Notes under the pieces: model-generated
Told to the model about the DNA's origin: nothing
The model's input: only the letters and a program-made list of their open reading frames with translations
Databases searched by the model: none
DNA from: Fibrobacter sp.
Lineage (GTDB): Bacteria > Fibrobacterota > Fibrobacteria > Fibrobacterales > Fibrobacteraceae
DNA length: 64,000 nucleotides
NCBI RefSeq assembly: GCF_045601785.1
Contig: NZ_JAZSAF010000048.1
Location: 729 to 64,728 of the forward strand
Direction: 5' to 3'
Position numbers and translations under genes: made by a program
In this document: in pieces, positions 6,089-21,473 of the stretch
How positions within the stretch are numbered: the stretch's first letter is position 1
Layout of the letters: the number at the start of each line of letters is the position of its first letter

Positions 6089-6113
6089 GATGCCGGGTCA
6101 AGCCCGGCATGAC
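6089..6113 (-). repeat. Solitary copy of the GTC-tagged REP palindrome (GTCATGCCGGGCTTGACCCGGCATC on the minus strand)
   Basis: One mismatch from the GTCATGCCGGGCTTGTCCCGGCATC units of the 18386-19640 array. Confidence 0.85.
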
Positions 6114-17548: not shown

Positions 17549-18367
17549 ATGGAAAAGAACACTCTACTCCACAAAGTGCTTAAACTCTGGTTTCGCCAGA
17601 AGTCCGACGGCGGGCTTGAGGCGAAGCTCGGGTACCGGTTCAAGGACCCCGAACTGTTGGCGCATGCGCTGGTGCACCGTTCATTCTTGACGGGCACGGA
17701 CATGCCCTACGAGAGCAACAACGAACGCCTGGAATTTTTGGGCGATTCCGTGCTGAACATGCTCACCACCGAATTCCTTTACAAGACTTACCCCGACGAC
17801 CCCGAGGGCGAACTTTCCAAGCGCAAGAGCGCGATTGTTTCGGGACATGCCTGCGCACAGTCGTCCAAGGAATGGAGCCTGAGCGAATACGTGAAGGTAG
17901 GCAAAGCCGAAGAAAAACTCGGCGGCCGCGGCAAAGAAAGCATTCTGGCTGACGCCTACGAAGCGGTTCTTGGCGCGGTCTACCTGGATGGCGGCCTCGA
18001 CGAGGTCCGCGCCATCTTGAATAAGTTCCATTTTCCGCGGGTGCAGGAGATTATTTCTGCCGAAGACTTTATCAACCACAAGAGTGAGCTTTTGGAATAC
18101 CTGCAGGGTAAGCTCCGCACGGTTCCGGAATATGTGGTGGTCGATGAATCGGGCCCAGAACACCAGAAGGTGTTTACCGTCGAAGTCCACGTGGACGGTC
18201 GCGTGTACGGTCGCGGTCAGGGCGGCAACAAGAAGAAGGCCGAACAGGAGGCTTCTCGCGTGTCGCTTGAAATGCTTTTAGCCGAAGCCGCCAAGGCCGA
18301 AGCTGAAAAAGGCCCGGAAGAACCCAAGCCCAAAAAGCAGAAGCAGCGCCACGTCGGTTTGCCGTAG
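17549..18367 (+). CDS. rnc: Ribonuclease III
   Basis: NERLEFLGDSVL signature, LADAYEAVLGAVYLDGG, and a dsRBD (HQKVF.VEV...G.G.NKKKAEQ). Confidence 0.96.
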   Translation: MEKNTLLHKVLKLWFRQKSDGGLEAKLGYRFKDPELLAHALVHRSFLTGTDMPYESNNERLEFLGDSVLNMLTTEFLYKTYPDDPEGELSKRKSAIVSGHACAQSSKEWSLSEYVKVGKAEEKLGGRGKESILADAYEAVLGAVYLDGGLDEVRAILNKFHFPRVQEIISAEDFINHKSELLEYLQGKLRTVPEYVVVDESGPEHQKVFTVEVHVDGRVYGRGQGGNKKKAEQEASRVSLEMLLAEAAKAEAEKGPEEPKPKKQKQRHVGLP

Positions 18368-19640
18368 CCGTTGTTCTCTGCGGCTGTCATGCCGGGCATG
18401 TCCCGGCATCACCACACTTCTCGCAGCTGTCATGCCGGGCATGTCCCGGCATCACCACACTTCTCGCAGCTGTCATGCCGGGCATGTCCCGGCATCACCA
18501 TTTTTTTTTCCCCGCAGCTGTCATGCCGGGCTTGTCCCGGCATCACCTTTTTTTAAGTCCGCAAAGAGGATAGTTGTTCCCGGGATAAACCCGGGAAGAC
18601 AAAATCCGCCGACAGCTTCGTCGATATAGACCTTGATCTGCCATAGCTAACCATTTCTCGCAGCTGTCATGCCGGGCATGTCCCGGCATCACCATTTTTT
18701 GTACATTCTTCCTATGCAATCCTACAACTACTATGTTTATCTGCTAACAACGAGTGACAACTCCGTATTCTACACAGGTGTAACAAATGACTTAGCTCGA
18801 AGGGTTGTAGAGCATAAGGTTCATAGGAATAAAGGTTTTACGAGTAAATACAATGTATCGAAGCTTGTGTATTATGAGTTGTTTTTTAATATTGAAGACG
18901 CTATAAAAAGAGAAAAACAACTGAAAAGGTATCCACGGGTTTGGAAGTGTAACCTTGTGATGTCAAAGAATCCTGAGTGGAATGACTTGTCCGCATCTAT
19001 AGGAATAACTAAAGAAGTCATCGAATCCGCAAAAGGGACCGTTGTTCCCGGGACAAGCCCGGGAAGACAAAATCCGCCGACAGCTTCGTCGATATAGACC
19101 TTGTTCTGCCATAGCTAACCATTTCCCGCAGCTGTCATGCCGGGCTTGTCCCGGCATCACCACACTTCTCGCAGCTGTCATGCCGGGCATGTCCTGGCAT
19201 CACCATTTTTTCCCGCAGCAATAGGAATTACAATGAGCCTGCAAAAGGGACCGTTGTTCCCGGGACAAGCCCGGGAAGACAAAATCCATCCGCAGTTCCG
19301 TCGATATAGACCTTGTCCCGCCGTAGCCGATTGTTCTCTGCGACTGTCATGCCGGGCATGTCCCGGCATCACCACACTTCTCGCAGCTGTCATGCCGGGT
19401 ATGTCCCGGCATCACCATTTTTTAAGTCCGCAAAAGGGACCGTTGTTCCCGGGATAAACCCGGGAAGACAAAATCCGCCGATAGCTTCGTCGATATAGAC
19501 CTTGTTCTGCCATAGCTAACCATTTCCCGCAGCTGTCATGCCGGGCTTGTCCCGGCATCACCATTTTTTTCCCGCAGCAATAGGAATTACATTGAGCCTG
19601 CAAAAGGGACCGTTGTTCCCGGGACAAGCTCGGGAAGACA
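18361..19640. repeat. Mosaic (BIME-like) array of GTC-tagged palindromes around a GIY-YIG gene
   Basis: Type A GTCATGCCGGG(C/T)(A/T)TGTCCCGGCATC at 18386, 18429, 18472, 18520, 18666, 19134, 19177, 19346, 19389 and 19535. Type B GTCTTCCCGGG(T/C)TT(A/G)TCCCGGGAAC on the minus strand at 18576, 19044, 19256, 19445 and 19615. The spacers are repeated, not unique. Confidence 0.95.
18714..19097 (+). CDS. Stand-alone GIY-YIG nuclease family protein (UPF0213/YhbQ-like)
   Basis: YYVYLL...FYTGVTNDLARRVVEH...FT.KY.V.KLVYYE.F..IEDAIKREKQLK...W; AT-rich compared with its flanks. Confidence 0.9.
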   Translation: MQSYNYYVYLLTTSDNSVFYTGVTNDLARRVVEHKVHRNKGFTSKYNVSKLVYYELFFNIEDAIKREKQLKRYPRVWKCNLVMSKNPEWNDLSASIGITKEVIESAKGTVVPGTSPGRQNPPTASSI

Positions 19641-19673
19641 ATCTTTCTGAACAATTTATCTATATTGTTCCGT

Positions 19674-21473
19674 ATGAAAGATTTCTCTGTTAAAGTTTCT
19701 TGCGCGGTTCTTGTTGCATCCGCGTTTCTATTTACAGCTTGTAACGAGTCCGGCGCATCCAAGGGCACAGCCTCTAAAAGTGCCGAGTTGAACTGCCCCG
19801 AACTCCCGCAAGACCCCGAAGCCACGGGTGAGTTCGACCCCATAGCCTCGAAGGACGCACGCCCCTGCGGAACGATTACCTTGTGGGGTTCCGCGATGCC
19901 GAAGTCATTCAACATGTGGGAAGACTACAACAGCTTCTCCGCCGAACTCATGGGCATGATGTTCGAGCCTCTCGTGAGTCTGCACTCCACCGAGGACCGC
20001 GAAGTGGGAATCCTTGCCGACAGCTGGAACGTGTCCGAAGACGGCAAGACGTTCACCTTCCACGTAGACAGCCGCGCCAAGTGGAGCGACGGCAAGGCGA
20101 TTACCGCCGAAGACGTGCAGTTCTACTACGACGTCATCATGGACGAGAAAAACCTCACGCCGATTTTCAAGGTGGGGCTCAGCCGCTTTGACCGCCCCGA
20201 AGTCGTGGACAGCCTTACCATCAAGATGACCGCGAAGGAGAGCCACTGGGGTAACTTCTGGGAGGCGGCGGGCATGCTCGCGTTCCCGAAGCACGCTTGG
20301 GCAGGTAAGGACTTCAACCAGATTCGCTATGAATTTCCGGTGGTCTCTGGTCCCTACATCATCAAGACCTTCCGCGAAGACCGCTACGTGGACCTCGTTC
20401 GCCGCGCCGACTGGTGGGGCTTCAAGAAGAACTGGAACCGCGGCAAGTACAACTTCCAGAAAATCCGCTACCGCTTCATGAACGACCAGACGAAGGCCCT
20501 CGAAGCCTTCAAGAAGCAGGATTTCAACGCCTACGCCATCTACACCAGCAGCATCTGGATGAAGCAGACCGACTTTGATGCTGTGAAGAAGGGCTGGGCG
20601 GTAAAGCAGCGCATTTTCAACAAGGAGCCCATTGGATTCCAGGGCATGGCCATCAACTTGCGCAAGCCGCAGTTCCAGGACGTTCGCGTTCGCCGCGCAC
20701 TTAGCATGCTCTTGAACCGCGAGACGATGAACGAGAAGTACATGTTCGGCCAGTACTTCCTCTTGAACAGCTACTACCCCGACTTGTGGGAAGGCAACAA
20801 GAACCCGACGGCGCCGCTCTACACGTTCAATCCGGATAGCGCCCGTGCGCTCTTTGCCGAGGCGGGCTACAAGGTGAACGGCCAGGGCGTGCTGGAAAAA
20901 GACGGGAAGCCCTTTGCCATCAACTTCATTACCAGCCAAGAAGACTTGCGCCACCTCACGCTGTTCCAGGAAGACCTGAAGAAGGTGGGCGTCGTGGCGA
21001 CCATCGAGCAGATGAGCCAGAGCACGCTCCGCAAGCGTCTGGACGATGCCGACTTCGACCTTTACTGGGTGAACTGGGGGGCGGGCCGCCTCCGTGACCC
21101 GGAAGCGAGCTGGCATTCTGCGACCGCTCTCCAGAAGGGCACGAACAACTTGGCTGGCGTGCAAGACAAGGTGGTCGATAGCTTAATCAACTTGCAGAAG
21201 ACGGAATTCGATTTAGCCAAGCGGAACGAAATCCTGAAGGCGCTCGATAACCGCCTCGCAGAAATCGTGCCCTACGTGCTCATGTGGCAGTGCGACCACC
21301 ACCGCATTCTCTACTGGAACCGCTACGGCACTCCTGCTGGTGTGCTGGACCGCTTCAACCGCGAGGACGCCATTCCTGTCTACTGGTGGCTCGACCCCAC
21401 GAAGTCCGCGGCCCTCGACAAGGCCATGAAGGCGGGGGAGAACCTGCCGGTTCCGGAATATGATATCAAGTAG
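19674..21473 (+). CDS. ABC transporter substrate-binding lipoprotein, family 5 (peptide/YejA-like)
   Basis: Lipobox LFTA-C; LADSWNVSEDGKTFTFH...AKWSDG..ITAEDV.F family-5 signature; SGPY. Confidence 0.88.
   Translation: MKDFSVKVSCAVLVASAFLFTACNESGASKGTASKSAELNCPELPQDPEATGEFDPIASKDARPCGTITLWGSAMPKSFNMWEDYNSFSAELMGMMFEPLVSLHSTEDREVGILADSWNVSEDGKTFTFHVDSRAKWSDGKAITAEDVQFYYDVIMDEKNLTPIFKVGLSRFDRPEVVDSLTIKMTAKESHWGNFWEAAGMLAFPKHAWAGKDFNQIRYEFPVVSGPYIIKTFREDRYVDLVRRADWWGFKKNWNRGKYNFQKIRYRFMNDQTKALEAFKKQDFNAYAIYTSSIWMKQTDFDAVKKGWAVKQRIFNKEPIGFQGMAINLRKPQFQDVRVRRALSMLLNRETMNEKYMFGQYFLLNSYYPDLWEGNKNPTAPLYTFNPDSARALFAEAGYKVNGQGVLEKDGKPFAINFITSQEDLRHLTLFQEDLKKVGVVATIEQMSQSTLRKRLDDADFDLYWVNWGAGRLRDPEASWHSATALQKGTNNLAGVQDKVVDSLINLQKTEFDLAKRNEILKALDNRLAEIVPYVLMWQCDHHRILYWNRYGTPAGVLDRFNREDAIPVYWWLDPTKSAALDKAMKAGENLPVPEYDIK

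Follow-up and report, generated by a model that had tools for sequence, protein, structure and literature searches.

What does a solitary nuclease gene do inside a dense array of palindromes, and does the enzyme that it encodes merely act on them or also multiply them? The question is raised by a locus of Fibrobacter sp. (assembly GCF_045601785.1, contig NZ_JAZSAF010000048.1), in which the 1297-nt intergenic gap between rnc, encoding RNase III, and a gene for a solute-binding protein (SBP) of the SBP_bac_5 family is occupied by a regular mosaic of GTC-tagged hairpins around one small GIY-YIG open reading frame (ORF). All coordinates refer to the window, that is, the 64,000-nt stretch of this contig that was analysed. 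The initial annotation had suggested that the gene product could be the cognate nickase or mobiliser of GTC-tagged repetitive extragenic palindromes (REPs). Our analysis indicated that the ORF probably encodes a GIY-YIG nuclease of the Ssn family, and that the two hairpin types of the array, A and B, are its cognate motifs and belong to the CGTC/TGTC-tagged REP kind. The part of the suggestion that concerns a cognate nuclease therefore stands, by homology and as already published for the family (Chenal et al., 2025), whereas its role as a mobiliser would be conjectural; few copies of A and none of B occur outside this locus.

The Ssn family, a near-synonym of the CDD entry cd10448, consists of single-domain GIY-YIG proteins of ~94 aa (Chenal et al., 2025, Nat Commun 16:2388; PMC11893778). 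SsnA of Neisseria meningitidis binds CGTCATTCCCGCGMAVGCGGGAATCYRG (NTS, a subset of the dRS3 repeats) solely as single-stranded DNA (ssDNA) and cuts a few nucleotides upstream of the repeat, 5' of its tag, while ignoring the complementary strand, double-stranded DNA (dsDNA) and RNA. The Neisseria enzyme is specific for the stem sequence, and its activity is abolished by Y6A, Y17A or E64A. Three more homologs cut beside their own repeats, and the characterised enzymes come from Neisseria, N. elongata, N. wadsworthii and Wolbachia. Ssn repeats have the form CGTCAT-hairpin-ATC, and Ssn-related motifs (SRMs) flank 71% of the homologs, on both sides in 42%. Chenal et al. likened the repeat-gene-repeat layout to an insertion sequence, compared it with IS200/IS605 and with REPs and bacterial interspersed mosaic elements, and raised, without testing it, the idea of a transposable element; the only in vivo role demonstrated for the family is the limitation of natural transformation in N. 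meningitidis (PMC11893778). From the side of the repeats, Di Nocera, De Gregorio and Rocco (2013, BMC Genomics 14:522; PMC3733652) described CGTC-tagged REPs with 8-9-bp stems starting AT, 4-5-nt loops and short tails, and knew of no enzyme associated with them, in agreement with the statement of the initial annotation that such REPs have been reported to lack a dedicated transposase. Their Neisseria CGTC-1 family is dRS3, the repeat recognised by SsnA. Taken together, the two papers already connect the GIY-YIG family with CGTC-type REPs; the later one does not cite the earlier.

The membership of the Fibrobacter ORF in this family is suggested by its sequence, its surroundings and its homologs. 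It is the only substantial ORF in the array, starts 23 nt past an A hairpin (18666-18690) and reads through an inverted B hairpin (19044-19068), so the annotated position of a GIY-YIG gene between an A and an inverted B was accurate. GIY-YIG is the sole Pfam domain of the product (residues 5-72), and alignments with homologs placed the nuclease core at residues 1-92, followed by a tail of approximately residues 93-127 that crosses the B hairpin. Residues Y9, Y20 and E67 are invariant in an alignment of 15 homologs from the genus, and their spacing of 11 and 47 residues is identical to that of the catalytic Y6, Y17 and E64 of N. meningitidis SsnA. In addition, a betaproteobacterial homolog of 94 aa shares 54% identity with the product (E 9e-35), and its gene is flanked on both sides by the 28-nt NTS consensus with one mismatch, in forward orientation upstream and in inverted orientation downstream. 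The assignment to Ssn would thus be one by homology, with the identity to this NTS-flanked homolog serving as a proxy for placement in cd10448. As in the published systems, a small nuclease gene lies between oppositely oriented hairpins with the head (H)GTC(A/T)(T) and the tail ATC, the stems differ by gene lineage, and repeats cluster around the genes. In the nearest subclade the tail segment SxxIG(V/I)TxExVxxAK is conserved and the ORF always enters a GTC-TTCCC-type 3' hairpin, from which it follows that B is the lineage's own 3' repeat. An alternative ATG at 18669, inside the A hairpin, would add 15 codons, and homologs start at the equivalent of 18714; this start, 23 nt past a terminator-like hairpin, leaves no room for a conventional promoter.

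The label UPF0213 that the initial annotation attached to the protein was not upheld. The best matches among solved structures were indeed UPF0213/YhbQ-type proteins (PDB 1zg2 and 1ywl), which share the fold class and size of the ORF product; the similarity is distant (E 2e-6, 31 bits), and the protein groups with Ssn. Moreover, the genome has a second GIY-YIG gene of UPF0213/YhbQ type, distant from the ORF (118 aa; contig C73, 69055-69411, minus strand; L149:1055-1411), with no tagged hairpin nearby, which provides a contrast within the same genome to the single gene of Ssn kind. We therefore rejected the UPF0213 label for the ORF.

The hairpins themselves are of two closely defined types. 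Type A (GTC-ATGCCGGG-N5-CCCGGCAT-C) is present in 10 copies with the tag on the plus strand, and type B (GTC-TTCCCGGG-N5-CCCGGGAA-C) in 5 copies with the tag on the minus strand; both have an 8-bp stem and a 5-nt loop. The palindromes are perfect in nine of the ten A copies, the copy at 19177-19201 having one arm mismatch, and in four of the five B copies, with one mismatch at 19615-19639. Including the flanking bases, A has the head TGTC, the stem ATGCCGGG and the tail CAC, and B the head TGTC, the stem TTCCCGGG and the tail CAA. All of them lie within 18386-19639, and the counts and recurring spacers given by the initial annotation were correct. Five A...B units, each with one to four A copies and a single B, make up the array; one bears the gene, the other four do not, and they are parted by four spacers. 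The gap from B to A is always 65 nt and gaps from A to A are 18 or 23 nt, and each 65-nt spacer is bounded by two tags that point towards one another (GAC ... GTC), one from the B before it and one from the A after it, both directed outward from the units. Chance was excluded as the source of the array because of this strictly regular spacing and because a control pattern read backwards had no match across 41 genomes. A search of the array against Rfam gave nothing above chance (best match E 0.63).

Several observations weigh against placing the gene and its hairpins with Ssn. The ORF has 127 codons, as against ~94 for Ssn, and its extra tail of ~35 codons, which crosses the 3' hairpin, is partly repeat-encoded; a search of the protein against NCBIfam matched no family; six of the 19 genus homologs lack a tagged hairpin nearby; and nowhere in the locus was there a match to the degenerate SRM search motif of the 2025 paper. 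This motif was hand-built from 29 genomes around NTS-type stems (PMC11893778), and genome-wide it gave 36 matches, compared with 10-24 in Markov simulations. A and B miss it on account of their 8-bp stems and 5-nt loops, which differ from the NTS type, while head and tail agree with the motif. We therefore file the locus as an Ssn member whose A and B are a hairpin type outside the published search pattern.

Whether the pairing of gene and hairpin extends beyond this locus was assessed in two sets of homologs. Forty relatives carry 0-5 homologs per genome, and among the 19 loci of the genus, oriented on the gene, ~12 carry tagged hairpins on both sides: the forward one lies 12-90 nt upstream, and the inverted one lies at the 3' end of the gene or within it, with stems that vary between lineages. 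The six hairpin-less homologs (L012, L013, L014, L016, L017 and L019) form a subclade of 94-97-aa proteins starting YY(T/V)YMM..., with no GTC-tagged hairpin within 300 nt; they may be domesticated copies, or may be paired with a repeat invisible to the detector. For a broader view, 80 loci were found with a 6-sequence alignment (46-60% identity), spanning Bacteroidota, Alpha-, Beta-, Gamma- and Deltaproteobacteria, Cyanobacteria, Patescibacteria, Firmicutes and others, and were scanned with a tag-plus-hairpin detector and five control tags. A forward hairpin was found upstream in 37 and an inverted one downstream in 38 of the 80; both flanks were tagged in this way in 29, as against 0-6 for the control tags. 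Furthermore, the arms of the two hairpins flanking the same gene differ at 1.7 of 8 positions, compared with 3.4 in shuffled pairs, and none of 2000 shuffles reached the observed value. The gene-hairpin pairing is general, beyond local coincidence. The notion of a nuclease matched to its GTC hairpins was left standing by both the enrichment at homolog flanks and the co-variation of the arms, and the gene-between-REPs layout, which had been compared with loci of REP-associated tyrosine transposases (RAYTs), is real and recurs at the genus homologs and across phyla.

One of the 80 loci is labelled Fibrobacter (L075, from a metagenome-assembled genome), and its hairpin set is identical to that of L008 in the genus member G012, in keeping with the genus supposed in the initial annotation. 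There the gene stands amid head-to-tail doublets of the form CGTC-ATTCCGGG hairpin-CTAG-ATGGCGGC hairpin-GACG, in which two different stems have their tags outward, resembling the dimer form of REP doublets forming hairpins (REPINs).

The features of the locus are collected in Table 1. The C-terminal codons of rnc are conserved in relatives both with and without the array.

Table 1. Positions of the array, its components and the neighbouring features in the window
Feature	Position	Strand	Details
Ssn-family GIY-YIG ORF (ssn)	18714..19097	+	127 codons; Pfam GIY-YIG PF01541, E 6.9e-15
rnc (RNase III), upstream neighbour	17549..18367	+	Pfam Ribonucleas_3_3, E 1.9e-35, and dsrm; stop codon abuts the array
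Left junction	18364..18375	+	rnc stop TAG, then CCGTTGTTC; the same 9 nt precede/enter the last B, 19607-19615
Unit 1	18386..18600	+	A 18386-18410, 18429-18453, 18472-18496, 18520-18544; 31-nt internal segment; inverted B 18576-18600
Spacer 1	18601..18665		65 nt
Unit 2, gene-bearing	18666..19068	+	A 18666-18690; ssn ORF; inverted B 19044-19068
Spacer 2	19069..19133		65 nt
Unit 3, gene-less	19134..19280	+	A 19134-19158; A 19177-19201 (one mismatch); 54-nt internal segment; inverted B 19256-19280
ssn 3'-end remnant in unit 3	19203..19255	+	71% identity to 18994-19070
Spacer 3	19281..19345		65 nt; last ~30 nt copy the rnc-stop junction (GCCGTAGCCG.TTGTTCTCTGCG.CT; cf. 18357-18385)
Unit 4, gene-less	19346..19469	+	A 19346-19370; A 19389-19413; 31-nt internal segment; inverted B 19445-19469; unit 1 type
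Spacer 4	19470..19534		65 nt
Unit 5, gene-less	19535..19639	+	A 19535-19559; 55-nt internal segment with gene remnant 19561-19614; inverted B 19615-19639 (one mismatch)
SBP_bac_5 solute-binding protein gene, downstream neighbour	19665..21473	+	Pfam E 1e-67
Solitary A-type hairpin, elsewhere in the window	6089..6113	-	Loop CTTGA, tail ATCTCC

The genome-wide distribution of the hairpins differs from that of an abundant REP family. In the 3.53-Mb assembly (89 contigs), exact A has 14 copies, nine of them in the array and five outside, and all four copies of exact B are in the array. As A and B are concentrated here, they constitute a local array and not a dispersed high-copy REP family. A generic detector, which required a perfect hairpin (minimum 7 bp) to begin right after GTC, found 164 sites in this genome, compared with 57-98 for seven control trinucleotides. 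The excess corresponds to ~73 sites, all stem variants counted, composed of TGTCAT, six G/C-rich bases, a loop, the return arm and ATC; the genomes highlighted by Chenal et al. (PMC11893778) have >200-300. These tagged hairpins have many different stems, commonly with the tail (T/A)CC followed by Ts. Besides A and B, the genome thus contains ~60 scattered TGTCAT-hairpin-ATC repeats whose stems are different (for example, ATTCCGGC and ATCCCCGC). The A/B array is thus set within a modest dispersed population of related hairpins.

Comparison within the array and with relatives allows its history to be partly reconstructed. In units 3 and 5, the internal segment of 54-55 nt is 71% identical to the 3' end of ssn (in unit 3 it translates to AAIGIT..QKG, as against SASIGIT..AKG in the gene), and units 1 and 4 retain only the last ~20 nt of this gene-derived segment. 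These gene remnants lead to the conclusion that the gene-less units are internally deleted relatives of the gene-bearing one, and the four gene-less A...B units are accordingly derivatives of an A-gene-B unit; such units are not described in the published Ssn systems (PMC11893778). In addition, 18513-18700 and 19382-19569 are 94% identical. Together with the copy of the rnc junction in spacer 3, this repeat shows that at least part of the array grew by segmental tandem duplication including host sequence, which copied the last bases of rnc, and not by clean transposition.

The order of rnc followed by the SBP gene is conserved in the genus. In the relative G056 (rnc 97% identical), the gap between them is 55 nt and holds a single B-type hairpin directly after TAG-CTGTTG. 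The left junction in the window reads TAG-CCGTTG-TTC, and the same 9 nt enter the last B, which matches the lone hairpin of G056. These sequences leave two possible histories: one B hairpin stood at the site before the array was built there, or the array was lost from G056 by deletion between the 9-nt repeats. The array appears to have grown locally, from a site that holds a single B hairpin in a relative.

The bases just 3' of the rnc stop codon form a hot spot among relatives. No hairpin is found there in G004 (L052) and G005 (L054); G055 (L051) has an insert of ~60 nt with a forward TGTCG-TCCCGGG hairpin, and G013 (L053) one of ~55 nt with an inverted ATCCCGGC hairpin; G056 (L056) has the B-type hairpin, and the window the full array. 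The SBP gene was not found within ~5.5 kb downstream of rnc in G055, G013, G004 and G005.

Solitary hairpins also turn over between species. At four orthologous intergenic sites in six species (80-86% nucleotide identity), some species have the tagged hairpin and others lack it, while in further cases it is interrupted, runs the opposite way or has a different stem, and at one of these sites the difference between species is essentially the 25-nt hairpin alone. The site orthologous to the A-type hairpin at C62:45197-45220 of the genome studied here has a ~54-nt insertion in one arm in G055 (L160), a hairpin in the opposite orientation in G005, and none in G004 and G013. Furthermore, of 60 solitary hairpins, nine are preceded within 45 nt by a second copy of the tag and left arm (a duplicated half-site), and only one is followed by such a copy. 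The duplicates (for example, C44:35803, C56:5698, C40:10564, C86:145767 and C42:69075) in some cases take in 15 nt of the upstream flank as well as part of the loop, and could be the trace that nicking, or a switch of template, has left at the hairpin.

How the nuclease would act on these sites can be proposed by analogy with the characterised homologs, from which strand-specific cleavage of hairpins by the encoded protein is predicted. The Ssn protein would recognise its tagged hairpin only in ssDNA, which could come from replication forks, repair or incoming DNA. Once extruded in ssDNA, the hairpin would be bound strand-specifically, and the nick would be made in the bound strand, a few nucleotides to the 5' side of the GTC tag. 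Since A would be read on the top strand and B on the bottom one, the two cuts would fall in the 65-nt spacers, outside the A-gene-B unit, which has the layout of an insertion sequence. We consider it plausible, though short of what we would expect, that nicks by the nuclease drive both the local amplification and the turnover of solitary hairpins between species.

A stronger version, entertained only tentatively, holds that hairpin-gene-hairpin is a true transposable element driven by a GIY-YIG ssDNA nuclease, with gene-less units and solitary hairpins as its non-autonomous offspring. The evidence on mobility is mixed. The turnover of solitary hairpins, the gene remnants and the foreign base composition of ssn (36% G+C, as against 56-57% in the neighbouring genes) speak for it, and we keep this version as a possibility because of the hairpin polymorphism at the four orthologous sites, the remnants, the foreign G+C content and the half-site duplications 5' of hairpins. 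Other observations tell against movement: B is restricted to the locus and A has only five exact copies beyond the array, and the duplicated flanking host sequence points to recombination and not to cut-and-paste. In a search for recent gene-bearing copies, the two gene copies of G007 shared nothing outside the gene except hairpins; they are only 74% identical, and hence show no trace of a recent transposition event. At the loci of the nearest homologs, nothing matched the spacers and units of the window. If the transposable-element reading were true, an autonomous copy would here stand next to four internally deleted ones, and Ssn would fill the long-vacant place of a mobiliser for CGTC-type REPs.

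Comparison with known hairpin systems delimits the assignment further. The hairpins here share with CGTC-tagged REPs (PMC3733652) the tag, a stem of 8-9 bp in which complementary A-T pairs come first, a loop of 4-5 nt and a short tail that stays unpaired, as well as the occurrence in head-to-head pairs and clusters. However, the head is TGTC instead of CGTC, the tails are CAC/CAA or CTCC instead of CCA, the B stem starts with TT, and the copy number is low, not that of an abundant dispersed family. Similarly, the locus resembles the REP/REPIN-RAYT and IS200/IS605 systems (Nunvar, 2010; Ton-Hoang, 2012) in that the gene of a hairpin-recognising ssDNA nuclease lies between inverted hairpin copies and the hairpin also occurs without the gene. 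Those systems use an HUH Y1 transposase and a GTAG tag, whereas the sole domain here is GIY-YIG and the tag is GTC, and membership was rejected on these grounds; moreover, strand transfer, which transposition needs, is not known for any GIY-YIG enzyme of the Ssn family.

The origin and role of the array might also be accounted for in ways that leave mobility aside. In one of them, which is possible but doubtful, a domesticated Ssn system, selfish no more, serves the host by cutting hairpin-marked ssDNA to limit or shape the recombination of incoming or replicating DNA near the marked locus, the array being a dense marking of the rnc-SBP gap. This would match the sole in vivo role demonstrated for the family, in the natural transformation of N. 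meningitidis, and would suit the single gene copy in the genome, the intergenic position of the ~60 dispersed hairpins and the failure to find recent gene-bearing copies. However, the low G+C content of the gene and its patchy distribution over many lineages, with 0-5 copies per genome, look selfish or horizontally acquired, and the many stems of the dispersed hairpins fit poorly with the stem-sequence specificity of the Neisseria enzyme. It is improbable that the hairpins are mainly terminators or mRNA-stabilising REP-like elements for rnc and its neighbours, with the GIY-YIG gene an unrelated passenger. Six A copies, in which a T-run accompanies the GC-rich 8-bp stem, do score like intrinsic terminators, nine terminator-like sites lie in the region where 1.8 are expected, and solitary copies mostly have T-rich tails and are positioned after genes; yet a terminator role leaves unexplained the conservation of the GTC tag and the ATC tail, the forward-upstream and inverted-downstream order in many phyla, the co-variation of the flanking arms, and the published specific binding and cleavage. 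A terminator role that ends rnc transcription could coexist with the nuclease role.

An assembly artefact, in which short repeats were collapsed or mis-joined, is also hard to credit as a partial source of the array. The draft has 89 contigs, but the contig runs on for 18 kb and 63 kb on either side, the units carry their own variants (loops CATGT, CTTGT and TATGT; ATAAA versus ACAAG; single arm mismatches), and clusters of a comparable kind are present at L008 of another genus member and, identically, at L075; the repeat units of 43-190 nt, being within read length, could have favoured such collapse. Finally, a free-standing homing endonuclease could have cut dsDNA at an empty rnc-SBP site, its gene being copied in during repair and the repeats arising as by-products of repeated homing. 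The near-empty allele of a relative, the low G+C content of the gene and a weak match to the group I intron endonuclease model TIGR01453 would agree with this idea, which we nevertheless regard as very improbable, since the ~90-aa nuclease core is accompanied by no DNA-binding domain, the homologs lie at unrelated loci, each with its own hairpins, and the characterised relatives do not cut dsDNA. The TIGR01453 match reaches 17 bits against a cut-off of 56 and no second domain is present, so that membership in the I-TevI-type homing endonucleases was rejected.

An Ssn-family nuclease with A and B as its cognate hairpins accordingly remains our preferred reading, and the locus is a clear new example of the gene-repeat pairing described in 2025, not a new kind of system. 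It adds a host, Fibrobacter, and a hairpin type with an 8-bp stem and a 5-nt loop to a family of interest as site-specific ssDNA cutters, in which each gene-hairpin pair is a potential new specificity. In addition, the locus is unusually readable, with occupied and near-empty alleles, gene-less units with remnants, and a duplicated host junction. It is therefore convenient for testing whether Ssn marks DNA or multiplies repeats, a question to which both the 2013 survey of CGTC REPs and the 2025 paper lead.

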